Shown here: piece after piece, positions 4,571-20,965 of the stretch
Numbering within the stretch: the stretch's first letter is position 1
Layout: each line of letters begins with the position of its first letter
Origin: Candidatus Sumerlaeales bacterium
GTDB taxonomy: Bacteria > Sumerlaeota > Sumerlaeia > Sumerlaeales > Sumerlaeaceae
Reading direction: 5' to 3'
Length of the DNA stretch: 64,000 nt
NCBI GenBank assembly: GCA_038243585.1
Contig: JBBSQY010000014.1
Span: 1-64,000, forward strand
Notes under the pieces: generated by a model
The model's database searches: none
The model's input: the letters and a program-made list of their open reading frames with translations, nothing else
Told to the model about the DNA's origin: nothing
Program-made: the position numbers and the translations under genes

Positions 4571-6079
4571 ATGGATTCAACAGCAATTTGGGTATTCGCA
4601 GGCTTGTTTGCGCTGGTAACTGTGCTCGGTTTCGTGGCGTCCCGCTGGCGCGCTGCGGATCTTAATCATCTGGACGAATGGGGTCTGGGCGGTCGGCGGT
4701 TTGGCACCATGGTAACCTGGTTTCTTCTCGGCGGCGACCTCTATACCGCGTACACGTTTATCGCCGTGCCGGCGCTGGTTTTTGGCAAGGGCGCTATTGG
4801 CTTTTTCGTGCTGCCGTACGCCCTTATGATTTTCCCATTATTCTACGTCGTTTTTCCCAGATTCTGGTCTGTCGCACGCAAGCACGGCTTTGTGACTGCG
4901 TCAGATTTTGTGCGTGCCCGTTATGATAGTCCTACTCTCGCGCTGCTTATCGCCCTCACCGGCATCCTTGCAATTATGCCCTACATCGCGCTGCAACTGG
5001 TCGGCATGGAAGTGGTCATCGGCGCGCTTGGTTTTCATGGCCACATTCCCATCATTGTCGCCTTTGCCATCCTGGCCGCCTACACGTACACCAGCGGCCT
5101 GCGTGCGCCCGCGCTTATTGCCATTGTAAAAGATTTGCTCATCTATATCGTTGTTATTGCGGCAGTCATAATCATCCCGGCCAAACTTGGGGGATATGAT
5201 AATATTGTAGCCGCCGTGCCGCCCGAAAAGCTGCTGCTACAGCCAGGACAAGGGTTTTCCTATGCAACCCTGGCCATAGGTTCAGCCGTGGCGCTGTTCC
5301 TGTATCCCCATTCGATTACCGGCCTGCTCAGTGCCGGAAGTGTTAAGGTAATTAAGCGCAACATGGCAATGTTGCCCGCCTACACCGTCGCCCTTGCGCT
5401 GGTGGCAGCGCTCGGTTACATGGCCCTGGCGTCAAATGTGGCCGATAATCCCGCATATGCGGACGGCTTCAATCGCTACGGGCCAAACTACGCCGTGCCG
5501 GCACTGTTTCTCCACTGGTTTCCCTCGTGGTTCGCTGGCGTGGCTTTTGCCGCCATTGCTATTGGGGCCCTGGTGCCTGCCGCCATTATGTCCATTGCAG
5601 CGGCCAATCTTTACACTCGAAACATCCATAAGGAATTCTTTCGCCCAAACTGCTCCCACAAGGACGAAGCCGATGTGGCCAAGCTTGTGTCGCTGCTCGT
5701 GAAATTCGGCGCGCTCCTTTTCATTCTAGCGCTGCCGCAACAGTATGCGATTCAGTTGCTACTCCTCGGCGGTATCTGGATCATTCAGACGCTTCCCGCG
5801 GTCCTCATTGGCTTGTATACCCGCCGACTACACTCCAACGCACTGATTATCGGCTGGGTCGTAGGCATGGGCAGCGGCACCTGGATGGCCGCCAGCCAGA
5901 ACTTCAGCAGCAATTTCCCGTTGCCCATCGGCGGAACAACCTTGACCGGCTACGCAGCCATTTACGCACTCATCCTGAACCTGGCGACAGCTCTGGTTCT
6001 CTCAGCGGCAGCAACTGCCATGGGGGCCCAGCGTGGGGCGGATCTCACAAAAGAAGAAGACTATGCCGTGGCGGATTAA
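4571..6079 (+). CDS. mctP: Sodium:solute symporter, MctP-like monocarboxylate permease
   Basis: EWGLGGRRFG..WFLLGGDLYTAYTF motif, multi-pass hydrophobic profile, DUF3311 partner. Confidence 0.8.
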   Translation: MDSTAIWVFAGLFALVTVLGFVASRWRAADLNHLDEWGLGGRRFGTMVTWFLLGGDLYTAYTFIAVPALVFGKGAIGFFVLPYALMIFPLFYVVFPRFWSVARKHGFVTASDFVRARYDSPTLALLIALTGILAIMPYIALQLVGMEVVIGALGFHGHIPIIVAFAILAAYTYTSGLRAPALIAIVKDLLIYIVVIAAVIIIPAKLGGYDNIVAAVPPEKLLLQPGQGFSYATLAIGSAVALFLYPHSITGLLSAGSVKVIKRNMAMLPAYTVALALVAALGYMALASNVADNPAYADGFNRYGPNYAVPALFLHWFPSWFAGVAFAAIAIGALVPAAIMSIAAANLYTRNIHKEFFRPNCSHKDEADVAKLVSLLVKFGALLFILALPQQYAIQLLLLGGIWIIQTLPAVLIGLYTRRLHSNALIIGWVVGMGSGTWMAASQNFSSNFPLPIGGTTLTGYAAIYALILNLATALVLSAAATAMGAQRGADLTKEEDYAVAD

Positions 6080-6087
6080 GACGATGC

Positions 6088-6170
6088 ATCGGGCTTCCAG
6101 CCCTCAATGCAATGCGCTGGTAACCTGGGCCTGCGGCCCAGTCCGCTCATGCGAACGAGCCTTCGGCCCT
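6088..6170. repeat. REP-like tripartite palindromic element
   Basis: Hairpins gggct-tcc-agccc, ctgggcc-tgc-ggcccag and gagcc-ttc-ggccc between convergent genes. Confidence 0.55.
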
Positions 6171-6180
6171 AAATACGATA

Positions 6181-6240
6181 TGAGAAGGAAATATGCTCCG
6201 ATGTACTGAAAGGAAATAAGCTCCGATGCGCTGAGCGGAA
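6181..6240. repeat. Imperfect ~25-bp tandem repeat (2 copies + partial)
   Basis: tgagaaggaaatatgctccgatgtac / tgaaaggaaataagctccgatgcgc / tgagcggaa. Confidence 0.6.
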
Positions 6241-6285: not shown

Positions 6286-6921
6286 TCACATGTTCATCTG
6301 CCGCTTTTGCGTCCACAGTACGTCGCCCCGGCTGATCGTACCGTTTGTGGCGTCGTAGCTGGCCTGGCCCTCGCCGACGATAGTATCCGGGCCCTTCATA
6401 TCCGGGCCGCTTGAATGAATGCGCCATGATCCATGCTGATTGCGCAGATCGTTAAATGCCATCTGATACCCGCCAGTAATTCTGCTTACCGCATGGTCCC
6501 AGTTTACGTACCAGTACTCCTTCGTTTCTGGCGACTCGATGTTGCCGCCTTTGCCAAAGACGTCTTTCGGCGGCTGGCTGAGGTAGGACACTGGCGTCGT
6601 CAGCGGGTTGTTGCCCATAAATGGTGGAGATACGAAAATGTTGATCATGTCTCCGCCGACATGGAAACTCCAACCGTTTTCCGCATCATCGTTTTGCACA
6701 TAATGATACGCCGGGTAAGACGAGTAATCTGTTCTATAAAACTCAAGACCGGTCGCCACGGTGCGCAGATCAGACTTAGCCCTGGCCACCTTCGCCCGTG
6801 TCTGAGCCTCCAGGAAATTGACGACTGCTATTCCGGCAAGAATGGCTATGATTGCGACCACTATAAGAAGCTCGATCAGCGTAAAACCGCGCCGAAATAA
6901 ATTTAAGCTATGTGGTTGCAT
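6286..6921 (-). CDS. Prepilin-type N-terminal cleavage/methylation domain protein (GspG-like pseudopilin)
   Basis: RRG|FTLIELLIVVAIIAILAGIA class III signal; SGPD and YDATNGTISRGD C-terminal motifs. Confidence 0.88.
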   Translation of the reverse strand: MQPHSLNLFRRGFTLIELLIVVAIIAILAGIAVVNFLEAQTRAKVARAKSDLRTVATGLEFYRTDYSSYPAYHYVQNDDAENGWSFHVGGDMINIFVSPPFMGNNPLTTPVSYLSQPPKDVFGKGGNIESPETKEYWYVNWDHAVSRITGGYQMAFNDLRNQHGSWRIHSSGPDMKGPDTIVGEGQASYDATNGTISRGDVLWTQKRQMNM

Positions 6922-7254: not shown

Positions 7255-10200
7255 TTAGTTCGGTCCTGATGCGGTATTGTTCAATTTGTTGCATTCAAGC
7301 GCTATTCCCTCAGCGTCAACGACCGCGATGAGATAGCGACCGCGAGGATCCTGGTCGGGCCGCAGCTTTACCTTGATGTTAACTTTTTTCGATTTCTTGC
7401 CCGGGCACAATGGCTTCAGGGCTTTGACGGACAGGAACTCGTCCGACGAGTCCGGAATTCTGTCGTCGGACAGATAAAGTTGAACCAACGTCGCCGGGGC
7501 GCACTCCGTGCCGATATTGCTTACGGCTATTCTGGATTGAACGCTGAACTTCCACTCCCCTTTCTTCTTATTGTATTTACAGATGGCCCGAGCCTTTGTC
7601 ATCTGCGCCGTCAGATCCGCGCAGTTGGACATTACGCCCACCACGGTACTGAGTTCCACGATGTTGTTCAGCATATCCGGATCCAGCACATCGGAAAGCA
7701 CGCCCGCACGATTAACCAACACGCCGGGTGCAAGAGGGGTCACGGTAATCGTAAGCGTAATAGATTCGCCGACCTCAAGAGCGACACCCGAGACGGATAC
7801 GGCACGGTCTGCTATGACGGCGGCTCCACGATCCGACGCGGCGGACACAACCGTCACATGATCAGGAAGTACGTCCACCAGCGAGGTCAGTGTGCTGCGG
7901 TCCGGGCCGAGGTTGATTGCTTTTACGGTGTAGGTCAGCGGCTGATTTGCGACCGCCGGATCCGGAGTGGCCGACTTGATGATCATCAGATCAGCGCCGG
8001 GGGTCGGCACGATGGCGACGGGCGTTACCGCGGATGCTGAGTTGTTGATGGTAGTCGCCTCTGACAGCGGGCTTGAGACGCTTGCCGTGTTTCTGATTTC
8101 GCCGACAGCGCCAGTACGAACGACAGTGGTGACGGTGACCGTCGCCGACTGATCCGCCGCGAGCCCCTGCAGGAAGGCCGTAAGATTGTTGCCGTCCAGT
8201 TGGGTTGTCCAGGGGCCTGAAGCATCCACGGACTGGACTTCCAGTTCTGCAGGGAGCAGGTCGGCAAGGGTGATGTCTGTGGCGTCATCCGGTCCGAGAT
8301 TGGTGACTCCGATGGTGTAAACCAGAGTCCCACCCACCTGCACAGCAGCAGGCGACGCCTGCATGGTGATGGCAAGGTCGTACTGTGAAAATGGCGCCGT
8401 AATACTCACATAAGCAATGTCATCGTTATTGATTGGGTTTGGATCATTTGTCTGGGAAAATACTTCAGCTAAATTATAAATGAAGCCGATTTCCCGGGCT
8501 CGTGCTACTACTGTCAGTCTCGCCACTTCCTGAGATTGCAGCTCGCTATAAGTTACCGATGCCCCGGACAGTGACGAAGTCAACATTCCCGTTGATGCGC
8601 TGGCAGAGACCAGTTCCAGATTTGGAGGCAGCGTGTCAACAAGCCGGACCGACCTACTTGGGTCAGGACCATTATTGGTAACTGTAATTTCAAACGTTAC
8701 AATTTCACCCAGTACAATATCTCGGGCTGATGCCGTTTTCGTTACATCCAGATCGGCAGCTATTGCGGGAACCACTGTAACCGCTGCGGATGCTTCATTG
8801 TTTGCTGGATTTAAATCTGGCGTATGTGACGTAACTTTAGCAGTATTTACCAAAGGCCCTAAATATACGACCCTTGCTACTATGTTTAGTGTCGCTGTTT
8901 CTCCAACATTTAAAGTTGGAATAGTTAAAGTTACCTCGCTATTAGATGATCGTACCGTGCCAGTCGACGCATTAGCGGAAATAAGATACGTACCCCAGGG
9001 CAGTGCATCAGTTACCTTGACCATTGTAGCCGGATTTGGCCCGTTATTTGTCGTAACTATCGTAAAATTGACGAATGAGAAGACCACCGCTTCTGAAGCC
9101 GACGCTGATTTACTAACCGACAGATCAGCCTCCTGAAACAGTTGATAACCGAAGGGGTTAGACATGTTCACATCTACGTTTTCTTCAATAAGTATGGAGT
9201 ATGGCATATTTCCTGTCGTCAGTTTAAACCCTGTAGGAAGAGTGTCAGAAATTATGTTCAGTACAGCAATGCCTTCCGGTAAAATAGCTTCAAATTTCCC
9301 AGATGTATCAGATACAAGTATCCTCGTTGTTTGAAGCGAATCAGTAACAAGCAGGGACACGTTCTCTAAGGGGCTCTCTTCGGGTGAAAAGAATCCGTCT
9401 CCATTCAAATCATTAAAAACCGTTCCACGATATAAGCCAGTGGGCACCGCTAGCTTTACGCCAACGGGCTGCGCCGTGGCTGTAGTTGGATTTTCATCAA
9501 GACCGACATCGATGATTTGAACTACGGTATCGGAGGTTGTAACGGTGCTTCCGGGAGGCAGCGTGGAGGTGAGAACTTCCACGCGTTTGCGGCCGGTGAT
9601 GATGGTCGTCGTGTAGCGGCCGTCGGCGTCGGTCATTACCTCTCCGCCTGCTTCAACCACTTGTCTGGCTAGCGCAGGAATCGGCTCGTCAGTAATAGAA
9701 ATCGTAACACCAGGCAGTCCCGGCTCGCCTAAATCCTGCACACCATTGTCGTTCACATCATTAAAGATCTGACCTTCGAGAAATCCGACTCCGACAAAGC
9801 CTACAGGCTCTGCCTCAACGGATTGATTCAGGCCCAGCGTGATAGATTGAGTGGTGTTTTCCGTGGTGACGACAGAGTTCGGGAAGAAGCTTTCCGGAAT
9901 GACGACATAATAGACGCCGGGATCGAGGAGGGCGGTGTAATTGCCCGCGTCGTCGGAAACCTGTGTGAAGATGGCGGAGTCCGAGGCCCGGGTCAGCGTG
10001 ACTGTTGTATCGGGCAATGGGAAATCAAATCCGTCTTTTAGGCCGTTGGCGTTGATATCGAAATATATATGGCCGTGGATGTCCTGAACCGGCGCAGCCT
10101 CGGAAACGGTGACAGTAAATGTGCATGTAGAGGTCGTCCCCGCGGCGTCTGTGGCCGTGCTTTGCACCGTTGTCTGACCAACAGGGAAAGTCGATCCGGA

Positions 10201-13200
10201 GGCGGGATTGCTGACGATGGTTGTCGTTGAGCAATTGTCGGTCGCGGTAACGGTGAAGCTGACAGGCATGCCAGTCTGATTCCGCTCGGCCACGAGGAAG
10301 ATATTTTCCGGACATGTGATTACCGGTGGCTGAGTATCGCGCACTTCAATTGTCATACTGCAGGTCGACTGATTTCCAAATGTATCCGTTGCAGTAGTGA
10401 TTACGTCCGTAAAGCCTACTGGAAAACGTGAACCGGACGGTGCGCTGGACTCAACGACTGAGGGTGTGCAATTGTCTTCATGTCCCACAAAGAAAAAGAC
10501 TTGAGCATCACAGAGACCAGGTTCAGCATTTACTGGGTCTACGCGTCCGCAATTAAGTAGAGGTGGCTGGGTATCACGCACCGTTACGGTGAAGGAGCAT
10601 GTTGTCTGGTTGCCAGCGGCGTCGGTGGCGGTGTTCAACACTGTCGTCACTCCGACAGGCAGTCGTGAGCCGGACGGCGGAACCGCCGTTACCGTTACGG
10701 TCGAACAGGAATCAAACGCCTGGGCGTCCCGGACTCCGAAGATTCCAGGCGCAAAGTTTTGGTTTTGCGGGGAATCATAAACTACAAGGGCGTCGCAGAG
10801 TCCCGGTTCTGCATCTACTACCATGTTTTGTGGGCAGGCAATAAACGGCGGCACTCGATCCAGCACTGTTACATTGAAGGAGCATACCGTTGTCGCGCCG
10901 TCCCGAACATAGACAGGCGTGGTGCCCACAGGGAAGAACGATCCGGAGGGCGGATCATAAGTCACATCCAGACACGTGCCACCGACTGGAGTTGCGTCGG
11001 GATATGCAACCTCGATACCGCACTGTCCGAAATTGGACGAAGCTGTTTCGGTGGTGATGTCATCGGGACAGGAAAGAATGCATGGCCCGCATTGACTTGC
11101 GCCACCATAAATCACATAGATGGAACTCGAATCACCAGAGTCGTCCCCATCCAGATACGCACCCACGAACACGTCATCATAACCATCGTTGTTGATGTCG
11201 CCAGCGGAAGAAACGATATAGCCCGCCTGCTTACCCGCTGCCGACCCGTCAATGCGATATCCAAAGGAATTCGAGGAGGCGAAATCCGCCAAATCAATAT
11301 TGCTGATTCCGACGTTCCTGCCAAAAATCACGTAGCTTGAGCCGGAAGCGTAGCGCCCGTTATTACTGGCCCAAAGAGCCCCCACAATGACATCGTCAAA
11401 ACCATCGCTGTTTACGTCACCTGCGGAAGAAACGCTACTTCCAGACTGGTCAAACGCCGCCGCCCCGTCGATTCGAAAACCGGCGGAGGAGGCCGCTGTG
11501 AAATTGGCTAGGTCAATATTGCCGAACCCACCAGCTTTTCCGAAGATCACGTAGCTGGAACCCGAAAGGTTACGCCCGTTGTTCCCAGCGGACAGAGCCC
11601 CTATAATAACGTCATCATAGCCGTCGCCATTGACGTCGCCCGCAGAAGAAGCGCCGCCGGCATTATCAAGCGCCGCCCCGTCAATGCGGAATCCGGCGGC
11701 ATTCGCCCCTGTGAAAGTAGCAAGGTCAATATTGACGAACCCAACGGCTTTACCGAAAATAACGTAAGTCGATCCAGATCGAGGCCGCCCGTTGTTGCCC
11801 GCCTCCCTGGCTCCCACCACAACATCATCATATCCATCGCTGTTTACGTCTCCTGCGGAGGAAACACTACCGCCGGATTGATCACCCGCCGTAGCCCCGT
11901 CCATGCGAAAACCAGCGGCATCCGAACTTGTAAAATTTAGCAAATCGACATTGCTAAACCCCCCAGCCTTTCCAAAAATAACATAACTGGAACCGGAAGA
12001 TCCGGGGCCATTATTGTCTGCGCCCCGAGCCCCCACAATCATGTCGTCATAGCCGTCGCTGTTGACGTCGCCCGCGGAAGAAATGCTACCGCCGGATTGA
12101 TCACCCGCCGCGGCACCGTCAATGCGGAATCCAACGGCATCCGCTGCTGTGAAATTCAGCAAGTCGATATTGCTGACGCCGCCGGCTTTTCCGAAGATGA
12201 CATAGCTGGAGCCGGATAAGCTGCGTCCATTGTTCCCCGCATTCTGAGCCCCTACAATCAGGTCGTCGTAGCCGTCGCCGTTGACATCGCCCGCGGAAGA
12301 AACGCTAGCGCCGGACTGATCATTCACCTCTGCCCCGTCTATGCGAAACCCAGTGGAATCTGAGGTGGTGAAGTCAGGCAGGTCGAAATTACCGAACCCG
12401 CCGACTTTCCCGAATATTACGTAGCTAGAGCCGGAGTCGGCGCGTCCATTGTTGTCGGCATTTGGCAATCCCAGGATCACATCATCAAAGCCGTCCCTGT
12501 TTAAGTCTCCTGCGGAGGAGACGCTAAAATAGGCCTCGTTATTGGACGGCCCATCGATACGGAATCCGCGGCTGTCCGGGGATTCAAAATCCGCCAGGTC
12601 GATGTTTTGCTCCTTGGAAACCGTAACACTAAACGAGCAGGTCGTCATATTGCCGGCGGCGTCGGTCGCCGTGGTGATGACATCTGTCACGCCGGGGAAG
12701 AATTCCGAGCCGGACTGCGGATCTGAAACGACTGTCGCCCGGCCGCAACTTTCAAAGGCCCGGACTGAGAATCTTACCGGCCTGCTGCACTCATCTGCTC
12801 CCAGGCTAATAAAAATGGGCTCGGGACAATTGAGGTACGGAGCGGTTGTGTCGGAAACTGTAACGTTGAAAGTGCAGGTTGTGGTGCCGTCGCTAACGGT
12901 GACAGAGTGGACCCCAACGGGGAAAAAAGATCCTGAAGGCGGATCATATTGCAGTTCGCCGCATTCGCCGCTCATCTGCGCATTCGGGTAGTCCACACGA
13001 TTCCCGCACTCATCAGAGGAGATTCCGGAAAATACATCCGCCGGACACTCAAGCACGCATGGCAATGCGGCAATAGTGAAGCTTTGCTCTGGCGCGAAAC
13101 GGGATCCTGCGAACGCGGTGTCGATAGACTGGACACTCCAATAGTAGGTGCTTGGTTCCAGGCCGACGATGGTTCGGCTAGTGATTATTTCTGCGTTGCC

Positions 13201-14844
13201 TATTGCGGGCACAAGACGGTAGCCGTTGCTGTCTCCCTCGCCAGAGTTGGCCATGGGACTGACGACATCTGAGATTCCTGGCGCCGTCCCAAGGCGCAGA
13301 TTATAATTAAGCCCTGAAGTGGATGTTTGGGCATCTGAAGCCGACAGCCAGCGCAAAGTCACGCTGCTTTCGCCGGTCTCGGCGGTCAGGCTTTCCGGAG
13401 TTGATGGAGTTGTGTTGCGGACATCACTGTTATTACTGTAGATGTTGCCTGCGCTTTCATCGTCAATGTCTCCACCGGTCAGCAAAATATCAAGGTCACC
13501 GTCATTATCATAGTCACCCCAGGTCGCGGTGGACATATAAAGTCCGCGGTACTCGACAGGAATACCTGACTCCGACGCGGTGAGCGAGGCAAAATTGTTT
13601 CCATCATTGCGGTACAATAACGAGAGCTCCTCACCAAGACCGGTCATCAAAAGGTCAAGGTCGCCGTCGTTGTCATAGTCCCCAAATGCCAGGGAACTGT
13701 CAACAACCGGAGGCAAACCGCTTTCCGTCGCCGTGAACACATTGCCGGGATCATTTCGATAAAGATTTGTTTTATAGGCGCCGCCGAAATTTATGCCTGT
13801 CGTAAACAGGTCAAGATCGCCGTCGTTATCATAGTCTGCCCATACGATGGCGCCTCTATAAAGTCCTTCAATACCGGCGTTCACATCAGTAAATACGCCA
13901 TTCCCATCGTTTCGGCGCAGAGCGGCGAATTGGTCACGGCCGCTGGAAAGGATGTCCAGGTCGCCGTCATTGTCATAATCGGCCCACGCTGCGTTGGAAT
14001 CCTCTCCCACGCTGAAATTGGCAAGACCGGTAAACGATCCGTCATTATTTTGATAGATGTAGACCATACCGTCATCGTTGACATCATCTCCCGACAGCAA
14101 AACATCCAAGTCTCCGTCGTTGTCAACATCACCCCAGGCAACATCAAGCCCGTATGATCCTGTCACGAGGCCGGCGTTAATATTGACAAACACACCATTG
14201 TCGTTGCGGTAAATGTCTGATATAGTGCCGCCATTGACCCGGCCGGAAATCAACAGATCCAGGTCGCCGTCGTTGTCATAATCCCCCCAGGCCAACCCGG
14301 CGTCATAAGTCCCCGGCAGGCCCGCGTTGATATCCGTAAACGCTCCGCCGTCGTTGCGATAAATTCTAGTAATGATATCTTCCGAGCCGTAACCGGTCAC
14401 AACAAAATCCAGGTCGCCGTCCGCGTCGTAGTCTCCCCAGGCCGACGCGCCATTTGCCACCTGTGGTATCGCCGCCTCGATATCCGTAAATAGGAACCGG
14501 AGACGCAGATGCAAAGTGCTTTCGCTCTGGATATTGTAGTCGGCAAGCGTGCGACCGTCTTCCAGATACTTGCCCGCAAAAACCAAACGTTGCTGGTCGG
14601 GGGGAATGCCTTCCTTATCCTGAATTTTCGTCTTTACGTTTTCAATTGTGTCATTGGCATCGACTTCCAGGGCAATGGTTTTTCCTGTAAGCGTCTTTAC
14701 GAATATCTGCATGGCATCGGCCTGGCCGGCCGCCGCAAATAGGAATAGCGCGATGAAAAACCTCGTGGCAATCCGCCGCAAGATGACCGGTATCTCCGTC
14801 GTGTGATTTCCGGTTCCGTTTGCTGCGAAGTTGTCAAAAGTCAA
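7255..14844 (-). CDS. Giant secreted multidomain surface protein: signal peptide, ubiquitin domain, 7x FG-GAP propeller, FN3-like, 2x HYR, 7x integrin-alpha-type FG-GAP, 4x HYR, 3x SdrD-B-like, 4x DUF11, CARDB-like C-terminus
   Basis: Uninterrupted 2529-aa ORF with AGGA 9 nt before the TTG start. Repeat motifs counted in the translation: [11 protein letters not shown] x7, AGDVNxDGYDD x7, TCxFxVTV-like x6, GxIFxDxNxxG-like x3, (A/Y)DLxxx(K/M)xA(S/T) x4. Confidence 0.9.
14497..14712 (-). other. Eukaryote-type ubiquitin domain (residues 45-116 of the giant protein)
   Basis: [72 protein letters not shown]; 62/72 identical to human ubiquitin by manual alignment. Confidence 0.97.
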
Positions 14845-15113
14845 TTTTCATCGTCCTGTTTAATGTTTTGTTTGCGCATATAATAATAAGAGTGCCAAAT
14901 TGAGCGTCAACGTAAAACCGGATTTAAAGGTACGATTTATGAACCTCCGGATCGAACTCGGCGCTGCTTTGCAAATGTTCTTCCTGAACCGGCTGGAAAT
15001 GAGAGTTTGTGCTGATGTTATGTGTCGCCTGTAAACGCCTTAAGCCTTCGCGCCCGCCTTGCCGCTATCACCAGTTGACGGGGCGCGCTTTTCTCTGGTG
15101 TGCTTTCTCTATC

Positions 15114-16709
15114 ATGCAAATCATCCGCCGCCATTCTTTAGATGCCCTGGTGTTCCTGCTGCTTTTTTGGAGTTTCGCTTATTTCCAGCACAGCCTGCCC
15201 GGCTGGAACGTTAATTCCCGGTTCGCGCTCACTTTGGCGCTGGCAGAATCCGGCACAGCGCAGGTCGATCGTTATGTCTCACAGCCGGCGCTGGAGACTC
15301 AGGACCTGGCCGCTTTTGATGGTCATCTCTATTCCGATAAGAGCATTGGTACATCCGTATTGGGCGTGCCTGCCGCGTGGGTTGTGGGGGCCGTGGAAAC
15401 AGCAGCAGACAGAACATTCTCCACCGCCACCCGCCGCTACCTGGTTACGTTGCTGTCTGTTGGCGTTGCCGGGGCGCTTTCCGGCGTATTGCTCATGCGG
15501 TTTCTGTCGCTGTTGTGGTCGCCTGTTCCTGGCGATCGGTCACTGGAAACGGCACCCGGATCCGCACGGCCTCCATCTGTCACGGGCGATGCCGCCTTCG
15601 CAGCCATTGGCGTCACTCTTGGCTCAATGCTTTTCCTTCACGGCACTCTTTTCATGAGTTATCTGCCGGCCCATATGTTTCTGGTGGCCTCGTTGCTTAT
15701 GCTGGAGAAAGCGCTTCGCCGCGTCAGGAGGGCGGAATCGCTGTCTGGCGCTCATGTTAAAGAGACGGGCTGGCCTTTGCCAGTTATCCTTCACTTCGCC
15801 TTGGCAGGGCTGTTCGCGGGCCTGTCGGCGCTGTGTGAATACACTTATGCGGTTGCGCCGGCGTTTATGGGGGTCTATCTTCTCGCGCGCCTGATTGGGC
15901 GAGTGCGTGTTCGGGATGGGGGATTTCATCTTTTCAGACGGCTCGGCGAGTCGTCCCTACCTGGGGCGGTTTATATCGTCGGCGGCGTTATTGGCTTTGC
16001 TCCGTTTCTCGCCTATACCTATTCGATTTTCGGCCGGTTTGCCATTCCTTACGAATACCACCTGATGCCGGAGTTTCGGGCCGCCATGGCCCAGGGACTG
16101 ATGGGCGCTAGTTGGCCCCCGGACGGGGATGTGTTGTGGCTGATCACCTTTCATCCGTTCCGTGGGATCTTTTTCTACTCGCCGCTGCTGCTGCTGGGCG
16201 CGGGGGGCATCCTCTGGATGATTTTTCTCGATAAACCGCGCCGCGCCTTCGCCTGGCTGTCAGTAGCCTGTATTGGCTTCTACCTGCTTTTTAACAGCGC
16301 CTATTATATGTGGTGGGGCGGCTGGAGCTTCGCCCCGCGCCACCTCGCACCGGCGATACCTTTTATGGCTGCGGGGCTTTTTCCTTGGTTTGGCAGCCGA
16401 TGGAGGTGGTGGGTTGCCGTCGTAGCGGCTTTGTTCGGGGTGGGAGTTCACACCCTCGTCAACGCCACGGAACCTCAGACCCCGGACGGCGGATGGCAGA
16501 CGGCCCTGTTGCGCCCGGACCTGGTTGCGTTCGACTATCCGGCCATCTTCCTCCACGACACCTGGCCCCGCGTGCTTGACGGAGCTTTTGATGCCAATCT
16601 GGGAAATTTGGCCGGTCTTCCGGGCAATCTATGGAGCCTGGTACCGCTCTTCGCCTGGTGGATTATAATGACCTGGTTGATCCGTGTCAGGCTGAAAAAA
16701 CTTCGCTAA
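15114..16709 (+). CDS. Polytopic membrane protein, probable GT-C-fold glycosyltransferase
   Basis: Many TM segments; NVNSR..D..YSDK first loop and WWGGWSFAPRHL motif; ATG at 15114 preferred over the upstream GTG. Confidence 0.6.
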   Translation: MQIIRRHSLDALVFLLLFWSFAYFQHSLPGWNVNSRFALTLALAESGTAQVDRYVSQPALETQDLAAFDGHLYSDKSIGTSVLGVPAAWVVGAVETAADRTFSTATRRYLVTLLSVGVAGALSGVLLMRFLSLLWSPVPGDRSLETAPGSARPPSVTGDAAFAAIGVTLGSMLFLHGTLFMSYLPAHMFLVASLLMLEKALRRVRRAESLSGAHVKETGWPLPVILHFALAGLFAGLSALCEYTYAVAPAFMGVYLLARLIGRVRVRDGGFHLFRRLGESSLPGAVYIVGGVIGFAPFLAYTYSIFGRFAIPYEYHLMPEFRAAMAQGLMGASWPPDGDVLWLITFHPFRGIFFYSPLLLLGAGGILWMIFLDKPRRAFAWLSVACIGFYLLFNSAYYMWWGGWSFAPRHLAPAIPFMAAGLFPWFGSRWRWWVAVVAALFGVGVHTLVNATEPQTPDGGWQTALLRPDLVAFDYPAIFLHDTWPRVLDGAFDANLGNLAGLPGNLWSLVPLFAWWIIMTWLIRVRLKKLR

Positions 16710-19530: not shown

Positions 19531-19702
19531 GACAACGCCGGATAGCTACACGCCGACTGTCGGAATGTTTCTTTCGCACCAACTTCACACAAAATGTTGA
19601 CACGCGCACATCAAGCAATGACCAACGAACAGAGATCACTTGCTTCACATCAAGATTGCCGGTCTCCGGCTTCACTTACCAAACGATCAAGAGGAACAAA
19701 AC

Positions 19703-20965
19703 ATGATAGCACGACTGCCCCAAACCGCAAAAAACAATTCGATATCTATAAAAGGCTGTATTCTGGCTGGTGTCATTACAGCTTTTGCTGTATCCAGCGC
19801 GTCAGCCCAGTATGAGGTACGCGAGTGGGCGAACTTCGAAGATGGCAAATTGCCTCCGAGCATGATTACCATTGGCGGCGGCTGGCAGAATCGCATGCAG
19901 GTGGTGGCTACGGATTCGGCCACCACGCAGGCTCCGGCTTTTCGCAACGAAGAGGTTGGAAAGAACGTTCTCCGGCTTCAGGCGACTCCAAGGAAAGCAG
20001 ATGCGACCAGCTGGCAGGTGGGTCTTGCCGTGGGCGATGTGGTGGATCGTACCAAACTGGGACCGAATGGCCGCGCACTGTTTCAGGCAGATTTTTATGT
20101 GGAGGAAGACGGCCGGTATCCGAGCATCGCCGTGATGGCCATGGAACCGCCAAAGAACATGGTAAATAACCATGTGGATTCCATCGGCGGGTCTTTTTAC
20201 CGGTTTGGCATCACTAAGGGTGATCGACTTTATTTTTCCCAGGTAGTTCCCGGTGGCGCAACAGCGTCCCGGTTTGAGCAGGACAAGGATCTGCTGACGC
20301 AACTGCCTCGCCCAGGCTGGCACCGCTTCGCCATTGTATGCGAAGGTCCGGAGATTATCCGGTGCTTTGTGGACGGCCGGGAAGCAGCCTTTTCTCCTTT
20401 AAAAGACACCGGCATGACGCAGGTGATGGTCGGTATGTTGCTCGCTGAACAGGACGCATCCTATGCCACGTATGCAGACAATCTTTCAATCCAGATCAGT
20501 GATGACGCGCCAGCGCTTCCAGCCTCGCCTTATGATGCTGGCTGGAATGTGGCCGCTGGCTCGTCTAGCAAAGCGAAGTCATCCGGTGCGAGCACAGCAT
20601 TACCTACCGCTCAGGTCACAACGGCGCTAGGCAGCGATTGGCTGCCCCCGGTTCAGGCATGGAGCAAGGCTCAGTCTGACAAAAAAGGTCTGCTTCTTTA
20701 CTTTTACGCGCCGGGCGTGACCAGGGTGGAAAAGGTAAACCAGATGTTGCAGACAGATGCATCCGCAAAAGCATATATGGCAAAACACGCCTGTGCGCGG
20801 GTGGACGTCAATCAACTTGAGGGCGGCAGCATAGCCAAGAAGTATGGCATCTTTAAAGTGCCAAGCTTCCTGGTTATCTCTCCTGATGCGCAATCCTATA
20901 AGAAGGCATCTCCTGGCGCCAACGACACTTGGCAGCAGATCGAATCGCAGCTGGCGCCGCTGTAG
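19703..20965 (+). CDS. Secreted protein: beta-sandwich (LamG/ConA-like) region + C-terminal thioredoxin-like fold lacking CxxC
   Basis: GAGGA RBS before ATG 19703; signal peptide ending ASA; WHRFAIV..CFVDG; C-terminal LLLYFYAPG..KYGIFKVPSFLVI. Confidence 0.55.
   Translation: MIARLPQTAKNNSISIKGCILAGVITAFAVSSASAQYEVREWANFEDGKLPPSMITIGGGWQNRMQVVATDSATTQAPAFRNEEVGKNVLRLQATPRKADATSWQVGLAVGDVVDRTKLGPNGRALFQADFYVEEDGRYPSIAVMAMEPPKNMVNNHVDSIGGSFYRFGITKGDRLYFSQVVPGGATASRFEQDKDLLTQLPRPGWHRFAIVCEGPEIIRCFVDGREAAFSPLKDTGMTQVMVGMLLAEQDASYATYADNLSIQISDDAPALPASPYDAGWNVAAGSSSKAKSSGASTALPTAQVTTALGSDWLPPVQAWSKAQSDKKGLLLYFYAPGVTRVEKVNQMLQTDASAKAYMAKHACARVDVNQLEGGSIAKKYGIFKVPSFLVISPDAQSYKKASPGANDTWQQIESQLAPL

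Follow-up and report, generated by a model that had tools for sequence, protein, structure and literature searches.

Why would a bacterium place a near-canonical ubiquitin at the head of a giant exported protein? The question is raised by a stretch of 64,000 nucleotides from a Candidatus Sumerlaeales bacterium, which we refer to as the window and which forms the first 64 kb of contig 14 (JBBSQY010000014.1) in a metagenome bin of 3.43 Mb and 99 contigs (GCA_038243585.1; 89.7% complete, 3.6% estimated contamination). The minus strand of the window contains an open reading frame (ORF) of 2529 amino acids (aa; 7255..14844 in the window's ORF listing), and residues 45-116 of its product correspond to ubiquitin positions 1-72. 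On balance, we favour the view that this is a Sec-exported surface protein of ~2500 aa, one member of a widespread class, on which a eukaryote-derived ubiquitin that cannot be conjugated serves as a displayed recognition module. The existence of the class, and its architecture of export and display, are far better supported than the identity of the partner that such a module would recognise.

The ubiquitin domain and its leader

Aligned with solved human ubiquitin chains (E ~1e-36), residues 45-116 are identical to human ubiquitin at 62 of 72 positions (86%, counted on the alignment), and they match the ubiquitin profile PF00240 over its positions 1-70 of 72 with 93.8 bits against a cut-off of 25.4. 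These two comparisons exclude chance and agree with the identity count and the coordinates given in a preliminary description of the locus, made from the DNA letters. The ten changes relative to the human protein are T14A, E18D, P19A, S20N, A28T, I44V, Q49Y, S57A, K63S and V70R. The frame is open throughout the ubiquitin region, with neither a stop nor a gap, and runs uninterrupted over the joins on either side of it. The codon composition of the ubiquitin is native to the gene, with GC content at third codon positions (GC3) of 0.556 in this part and 0.562 in the remainder. The gene is confirmed as a real bacterial one, on a contig that holds at least 64 kb of bacterial genes.

Where a free ubiquitin would end in L-R-L-R-G-G, the sequence reads LRLR followed by FLFTD and 2413 further residues beyond the domain in all; that is, after ...LHLRLR the residues F-L-F-T take the place of L73-R74-G75-G76. 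The terminal Gly-Gly is thus missing, as had been remarked at the outset, and conjugation is therefore ruled out for the window ubiquitin. We also looked for E2, UCH and OTU families (PF00179, PF00443, PF02338) and found none in the window's 89.7%-complete genome, a weak negative in that control genomes also gave no match. With other residues in place of Gly-Gly, and neither UCH nor OTU found, the fusion of ubiquitin to the rest of the protein is probably permanent. Canonical ubiquitin has seven lysines and a recognition patch formed by Leu8, Ile44 and Val70. The window copy retains K6, K11, K27, K29, K33 and K48, with Ser at position 63, and in the patch it keeps L8 and has Val for I44 and Arg for V70.

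The only in-frame starts before Met45 are two TTG codons, at 14842-14844 and 14779-14781, with no ATG or GTG. The second is more likely to be the start, as judged from a GGAG 12 nt upstream and from the signal peptide of 23 residues that it would open. This predicted signal peptide lies directly upstream of ubiquitin Met1 and ends in A-D-A, with Ala at -3 and -1, and its hydrophobic core reaches a peak Kyte-Doolittle 11-residue mean of 2.77. Applying the -3/-1 rule, and given the family-wide pattern described below, we infer cleavage after A-D-A, right before Met1, which would leave a mature protein of ~2485 aa. The earlier proposal of a signal peptide that abuts Met1 is borne out by the hydrophobic core, the two alanines and the same layout at related loci. 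Tat export was considered and set aside: the leader contains Arg-Arg, but on inspection it does not fit the twin-arginine consensus, and a cargo of 2500 aa favours Sec. One promoter-like site was found, compared with a mean of 0.4 in shuffles.

A class of exported bacterial ubiquitins

We scanned one genome per prokaryotic species with a 72-aa query, obtaining at least 605 pattern matches, at least 393 of them confirmed, and analysed the best 80 loci (L numbers below); these hold 102 ubiquitin units, to which the class counts refer. An upstream segment was called signal-like if it had a hydrophobic run and small residues at -1 and -3 and ended exactly at Met1. By this rule, a signal-like peptide ending at Met1 precedes 50 of the 102 units, at 46 of the best 80 loci (L049 is doubtful), and L046, L058, L070 and L071 look alike by eye. 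The carriers stand under ten phylum labels (Pseudomonadota, Verrucomicrobiota, Bacteroidota, Bacillota, Actinomycetota, Lentisphaerota, Planctomycetota, Bdellovibrionota, Vulcanimicrobiota and Methanobacteriota) and include cultured organisms, namely three Dyella isolates and Leeia oryzae DSM 17879, all four with long contigs, and Ruminococcus albus 7, on a megaplasmid. The preliminary description had called close ubiquitin homologues rare in bacteria, but they are not very rare: among only the best 80 of at least 393 confirmed matches, signal-plus-ubiquitin genes occur in no fewer than 46 genomes at species level, with 10 phylum labels between them.

About half of the 102 units are obvious eukaryotic contamination, consisting of polyubiquitin or ubiquitin-ribosomal fusions mostly on contigs below 1.2 kb, and a few others are free 76-aa genes. 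The contaminated loci (L015, L018, L019, L025-L028, L032, L033, L035, L038, L040-L042, L048, L062, L063, L069 and L075) fall on tiny low-coverage contigs, and the representative genomes affected include strains of Marinobacter, Microbacterium, Arthrobacter, Ectobacillus and Shewanella.

What accompanies the ubiquitin was determined by a Pfam scan of 45 signal-plus-ubiquitin frames. An autotransporter beta-domain was present in nine, dockerin in three, OmpA in two, a type IX secretion system (T9SS) sorting tail in two (one of them below the cut-off), SLH in one, and a combination of SdrD_B, SpaA and DUF11 in one (L051, 1518 aa); Flg_new or Big_2, RCC1 with Calx-beta, DUF6345, FGE-sulfatase and CBM_X2 were also seen. 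With NCBIfam, L067 also showed an IPTL-CTERM tail, above the cut-off, and L013 a choice-of-anchor U domain. About 20 of the 45 frames had no recognised partner, and the three Dyella genes consist of a signal peptide and ubiquitin with little else. In one frame the partner stands upstream instead: the Methanobacteriota-labelled L036 (5635-6429) begins with an archaeal type IV pilin N-terminal domain, followed after ~100 residues by a near-canonical ubiquitin, which suggests a ubiquitin mounted on an archaeal pilus-like protein. Read across these predicted domains, the shared design is that of ubiquitin as exposed N-terminal cargo borne on a C-terminal anchor or stalk. The display at the tip that had been proposed for the window protein fits this comparative picture, since the same signal-ubiquitin head is joined to C-terminal anchors elsewhere.

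The window protein shares with the class (L004-L082; R. albus 7 WP_013483628.1) a signal-like peptide abutting Met1, a ubiquitin body 1-72 that is kept at an identity of at least ~80%, and the loss of the tail 73-76, and with L051 it also shares SdrD_B and DUF11 stalk repeats. It differs in being the longest protein seen, in its unique changes at positions 49, 63 and 70, and in having adhesin-type repeats and no recognised anchor, where many class members have one. An FG-GAP propeller after ubiquitin was found in the window only, being absent from all 45 frames examined and from all 76 metagenome propeller loci.

Mobile carriers were searched for with a 31-aa query, which is short and hence less sensitive, and gave one plasmid match, in R. 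albus 7, and none in phages. The match, in a cultured type strain, is a signal-plus-ubiquitin gene (L167 4800-5540) on pRUMAL01 (NC_014824.1), a mobilizable megaplasmid of 420 kb. This gene adjoins a dockerin gene and a DDE transposase and has been named 'ubiquitin family protein' automatically; its ubiquitination Gene Ontology (GO) terms are very probably wrong, since its predicted product is an exported protein without Gly-Gly. At L013, L064, L065 and L078, two signal-plus-ubiquitin genes are adjacent or separated by a few kb, and both copies at L078 are fused to OmpA-like domains.

Another way to view the class is through the selection acting on its ubiquitins. Their GC3, ranging from 0.18 to 0.97, correlates with the GC content of the locus that carries them (r 0.85, n 52), which marks the genes as resident and ameliorated. 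Over 1378 pairs the median proportion of synonymous differences (pS) is 0.86, which is saturated, and that of nonsynonymous differences (pN) is 0.094; the Dyella pairs give pS of 0.76-0.86 and pN of 0.03-0.06, with an upstream neighbour in common to L047 and L055. The dN/dS ratio is 0.015 for L007/L012 and 0.055 for L044/L058, and the tandem paralogues at L013, L064, L065 and L078, at 0.09-0.21, lie above such orthologue-like pairs. Across 53 units the median identity to a consensus of eukaryote type, derived from the contaminant contigs, is 90%; most of the variation falls at positions 16, 19, 20, 22, 24, 28, 32 and 57, and positions 44, 49, 70 and 72 vary to a milder degree. By comparison, LRGG is retained in 5 of the 53. 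Conservation of the body together with loss of LRGG in most units means that strong purifying selection acts on the globular part and spares the conjugation tail. K11, K27, K29, K33, K48 and K63 are each retained in at least 92% of the 53 units, and exchange of Lys for Arg occurs only at K6 (8 units, in rumen Clostridia) and K33 (1 unit), even where GC3 is ~0.9-0.97. This retention is a hint that lysine is favoured for its chemistry or its recognition and not simply for its charge.

Among prokaryotic copies, the window ubiquitin is nearest to that of the Nitrosomonas-labelled L003 (90% identical), with a best nucleotide identity of 78% (L064, L022), and it has A14, N20 and V44 in common with proteobacterial copies. 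We built a tree of 78 rows and 72 columns, which does not include reference eukaryotic, giant-virus, Asgard or BfUbb/BoUbb sequences. The window copy falls in a weakly supported group (93/77) of 15 rows, all of them prokaryotic contigs and none a eukaryote-type contaminant unit. This grouping hints that the ubiquitin may have come most recently from a bacterium and not directly from a eukaryote. Of the horizontal acquisition suggested in the preliminary description, the foreign, near-canonical ubiquitin stands, and a direct eukaryotic donor is put in doubt. The L003 gene itself (5848-6216) has no signal peptide in the assembly, with a stop two codons upstream; it lies between two nearly identical GC-rich repeats of ~25 nt and has a tail of three parts (a short motif, a hydrophobic helix and a basic cluster) that resembles a C-terminal sorting tag.

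The giant protein and its setting

The order of domains in the 2529-aa protein (Table 1) was obtained by scanning the full-length protein and 16 segments of it with Pfam and by counting motifs. The FG-GAP, HYR, SdrD_B, DUF11 and CARDB repeats all score above the Pfam cut-offs, and there are two sets of seven D-x-D-x-D-G motifs; those of the first propeller take the form D-x-D/N-x-D-G-x-x-D, and those of the second lie at residues 780, 853, 926, 999, 1070, 1143 and 1216. Homologues bear PF00041 or PF16656 after the propeller, and the alignment with a protein of the same-genus genome G002 extends through residues ~481-575, for which Pfam gave no match. Residues 1750-1910 likewise had no Pfam match. 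The Pfam scans found no toxin domain anywhere in the protein.

Residues 117-2529 have the architecture of giant adhesin-like surface proteins with FG-GAP/VCBS, HYR and DUF11 domains, whose relatives are abundant in Bacteroidota and other phyla. In contrast to the window protein, these relatives start the propeller directly after the signal peptide, and none among the top 120 relatives listed combines PF00240 with FG-GAP families. The protein of G002, for instance, is a 536-aa propeller protein whose mature start, AFTLVEN..., directly follows its own signal peptide. Judged by such predicted starts, the ubiquitin insertion lies exactly between the signal peptide and the usual mature start of the propeller.

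Table 1. Features of the ubiquitin gene and of a gene downstream of it, in window coordinates
Feature	Position	Strand	Remarks
Promoter-like site, TTGACG, 16-nt spacer, TATTAT	14883..14910	-	10/12 consensus matches; consensus match only
N-terminal leader	14713..14844	-	Two TTG starts; predicted Sec-type signal peptide; A-D-A at 14713-14721
Ubiquitin domain, residues 45-116	14497..14712	-	PF00240, E 5e-27; 62/72 identity; mature N-terminus if cut after ADA
Junction F-L-F-T	14485..14496	-	Replaces ubiquitin L73-R74-G75-G76; F-x-F-T-D-I is the usual mature N-terminus of such propellers
First seven-bladed FG-GAP/VCBS-type beta-propeller, residues ~121-480	13405..14484	-	PF13517 FG-GAP_3; motifs at 138, 188, 239, 289, 337, 389, 444
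Region without Pfam match, residues ~481-575	13120..13404	-	Scan at E <= 1e-4; FN3-like only by the equivalent part of relatives
HYR-domain region, residues ~576-745	12610..13119	-	PF02494, best stretch 665-742
Second seven-bladed propeller, integrin-alpha-type FG-GAP, residues ~746-1290	10975..12609	-	PF01839, 7 stretches
Further HYR domains, residues ~1291-1600	10045..10974	-	PF02494, E 3e-19 and 8e-28, two segments
SdrD_B / carboxypeptidase-regulatory-like beta-sandwich stalk repeats, residues ~1601-1900	9145..10044	-	PF17210, PF13620
Four DUF11 repeats, residues ~1901-2400	7645..9144	-	PF01345, E 4e-86, 4 stretches; TIGR01451
C-terminal CARDB domain, residues 2434-2526, and stop codon	7255..7545	-	PF07705; C-terminus ...NNTASGPN
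211-aa protein with prepilin-type N-terminal methylation motif	6286..6921	-	TIGR02532, 36.2 bits vs cut-off 16.3; PF07963

Around the giant gene lie ordinary bacterial genes (for an RhlE-type helicase, DsbD, ABC transporters, MctP, a prepilin-type protein and acetolactate decarboxylase), a setting which, with the continuous frame, upholds the earlier statement that the domain sits in frame within a bacterial gene and neighbourhood. The prepilin-type gene is on the same strand, 333 bp downstream of the giant gene, and may be a pseudopilin or secretion partner, or unlinked. Two ORFs on the plus strand, 15009-16709 (566 aa) and 19640-20965 (441 aa), matched nothing in Pfam or NCBIfam at the thresholds applied; the former runs divergently from the promoter region of the ubiquitin gene. 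A single DNA run, X1 from a soil metagenome, contains the stretch (share 0.90), and no RNA run is listed as containing it.

Possible roles of a displayed ubiquitin

If the favoured reading is correct, the very hydrophobic signal peptide would drive Sec export, probably co-translationally, and signal peptidase I (SPI) would cut after A-D-A. Once outside the cytoplasm, the ubiquitin would fold and form the far tip of a stalk made of the two propellers and the HYR, SdrD_B, DUF11 and CARDB domains, a topology that we infer. There it would work as a displayed protein-recognition module and not as a modifier.

A number of observations weigh against this. The first is that the fusion is so far a singleton. 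PF00240 occurs once in the window's genome, and it occurs in none of 60 relatives and none of 74 other genomes of the phylum, counts that also bear out the claim that the ubiquitin is foreign. The 5 nearest genomes yielded no orthologue of the giant protein, and a metagenome scan with residues 86-200 recovered 76 propeller loci, none of them with ubiquitin. Using residues 1-330 as query, no protein with both ubiquitin and FG-GAP appeared among the top 120 relatives, which were either eukaryotic polyubiquitins or bacterial FG-GAP proteins. The search for signal-ubiquitin-FG-GAP fusions that had been called for thus gave no second example among relatives, phylum genomes or metagenome loci, and the ubiquitin-propeller fusion is a lineage-specific member of the class. 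The window copy is, moreover, among the more divergent, with Y49, S63 and R70 each unique among the 53 units and Val in place of I44. With its Ile44 patch and Lys63 altered, the simple reading that it binds canonical ubiquitin receptors is weakened for this copy. A ubiquitin on the cell surface would also have no obvious way of meeting eukaryotic receptors that are cytosolic. Pfam and NCBIfam scans recognised neither an anchor nor a sorting domain at the C-terminus of the 2529-aa protein, and without one the protein could be released rather than displayed.

Further points concern the class and the assembly. An all-against-all BLASTP comparison of 251 neighbour ORFs and 10 window neighbours found no conserved neighbour gene, since all that matched were antisense shadow ORFs, second copies of ubiquitin and a small number of pairwise syntenies, and so points to no partner. 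In the tree, 51 of 72 inner branches are unresolved, and it decides neither between a single origin and many nor on a donor. The saturation of pS between lineages could partly reflect separate acquisitions from different eukaryotes; low pN at saturated pS holds within lineages of common architecture too, however. Finally, the junctions at 14712/14713 and 14496/14497 are known from the assembly, and X1 may be its source sample.

How does the window protein relate to the bacterial ubiquitins already described? BfUbb of Bacteroides fragilis has an SPI signal with the cut site aligned with ubiquitin residue 1, lacks Gly-Gly and kills B. fragilis strains (PMC5705921), targeting a periplasmic peptidyl-prolyl isomerase (PPIase) and entering through the SusCD-type transporter ButCD (PMC11467351); it is 63% identical to human ubiquitin (PMC3352274). 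BoUbb of B. ovatus was described in 2024 (PMC11467351), and in another paper B. fragilis is termed 'the only bacterium known' (PMC6194340). BfUbb and BoUbb resemble the window protein in being eukaryote-type ubiquitins of bacteria with an SPI site before residue 1, no functional Gly-Gly and a presumed inter-kingdom origin. BfUbb, however, is a free mature protein of 76 aa and a proven diffusible toxin limited to Bacteroides, whereas the window protein, known from sequence alone, carries an 86% identical ubiquitin as the first domain of a ~2500-aa surface protein in an uncultured soil lineage. Eukaryotic precursors (polyubiquitin, ubiquitin-eL40 and ubiquitin-eS31) likewise have ubiquitin as an N-terminal module, and nematode ubiquitin-extension proteins that are secreted and bear a signal peptide receive a mention in PMC5705921; the eukaryotic precursors retain Gly-Gly and have their ubiquitin released by deubiquitinases, whereas in the window protein Gly-Gly is replaced. 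We found no description of the class or of the fusion in the full-text literature (subscription journals lying mostly outside this scope), where only BfUbb and BoUbb of Bacteroides appeared, and a beta-grasp survey (PMC1949818) has no mention of such proteins. No paper was found that describes a signal-ubiquitin-propeller fusion, in keeping with the preliminary description, which had not recognised the architecture. Thus, the giant two-propeller adhesin is an extreme variant of secreted bacterial ubiquitin within a broad and seemingly undescribed class.

As to what a displayed ubiquitin would recognise, we tentatively suggest the ubiquitin-recognising proteins of eukaryotes, whether grazers or hosts, by molecular mimicry. 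We prefer such a eukaryote-facing mimic because constraint spans nearly the whole surface of the protein, as it does in eukaryotes; BfUbb, by contrast, serves a bacterial target and has drifted to 63% identity. It is a larger and rather unlikely step to suppose that the display of near-native, unconjugatable ubiquitin on surface tips under at least ten phylum labels (on adhesin stalks, autotransporters, cellulosomes, and S-layer- or T9SS-anchored proteins) engages eukaryotic ubiquitin recognition throughout, as a general and so far unrecognised form of inter-kingdom mimicry that selection on nearly the entire ubiquitin surface, lysines included, would maintain.

A BfUbb-like weapon against other bacteria is an unlikely but well-precedented alternative. 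The head would be released or presented, be taken up through an outer-membrane transporter and block a periplasmic target, for example a PPIase, with the body serving for delivery or contact. The sole characterised bacterial ubiquitin homologues act in this way (PMC5705921, PMC11467351), and the Dyella genes, with a signal peptide, ubiquitin and little else, are laid out like BfUbb. The identity of ~90% in the class, compared with that of BfUbb, nevertheless suggests broader constraints than a single bacterial target would impose. Most partners, moreover, are of types that would tether the ubiquitin to the producing cell (autotransporter, dockerin, SLH, T9SS tail, OmpA), no immunity-like or transporter gene recurs among the 251 neighbour ORFs, and the window protein has no toxin domain that the scans could find.

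Alternatively, the ubiquitin might have no specific partner and act as an inert cap, that is, as a fast-folding, very stable and protease-resistant plug at the N-terminus that assists extracellular proteins in being exported, in folding or in surviving. Ubiquitin is a stable protein and is used as a fusion partner to raise protein yield. It is always at the extreme N-terminus in the class, beside unrelated types of cargo or anchor, and the presence of LRGG in so few units marks the conjugation tail as dispensable, all of which would suit a plug. Such a role would not, however, account for the ~60% of purely surface-exposed positions that are held at 91% or more at saturated synonymous sites, nor for the preference for Lys over Arg that six of the seven lysine positions show even where genomic GC is high, nor for several genes in which ubiquitin is the sole recognised cargo (autotransporter, dockerin-only and IPTL-CTERM forms). 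We therefore rate it as distinctly improbable.

An artefact, either an assembly chimera of eukaryotic or other DNA with an adhesin gene or a cytoplasmic gene starting at Met45, could be imagined in a 99-contig metagenome bin with 3.6% estimated contamination, the more so as many ubiquitin matches in other 'prokaryotic' assemblies are contaminants of the kind described above, but it is highly improbable given the continuous frame over both joins, ten substitutions and a missing Gly-Gly unlike any canonical eukaryotic copy, a ubiquitin GC3 equal to that of the rest of the gene, joins that fall exactly at the signal-peptidase site and the usual propeller start, the recurrence of the signal-to-Met1 join at 46 independent loci, some of them in isolates assembled into megabase contigs, the 90% of sampled 31-mers from 14100-15100 that separately built contigs of one run hold (not independent if that run is the source sample), and downstream domains that are all of extracellular types needing a signal peptide.

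Returning to the displayed recognition module, its significance lies in the breadth of the class, which spans soil, fresh water, sea, sludge and rumen and places ubiquitin at the exposed end of surface proteins. A nearly unchanged protein combined with complete synonymous turnover points to an extracellular job of ubiquitin, independent of conjugation and under strong selection. The cultured carriers, Dyella, Leeia oryzae DSM 17879 and Ruminococcus albus 7, make the question directly testable. The answer bears on annotation, in that bacterial 'ubiquitin family proteins' are now given misleading ubiquitination GO terms, and on resistance to grazing, host-microbe mimicry and antigenic cross-reaction with ubiquitin.

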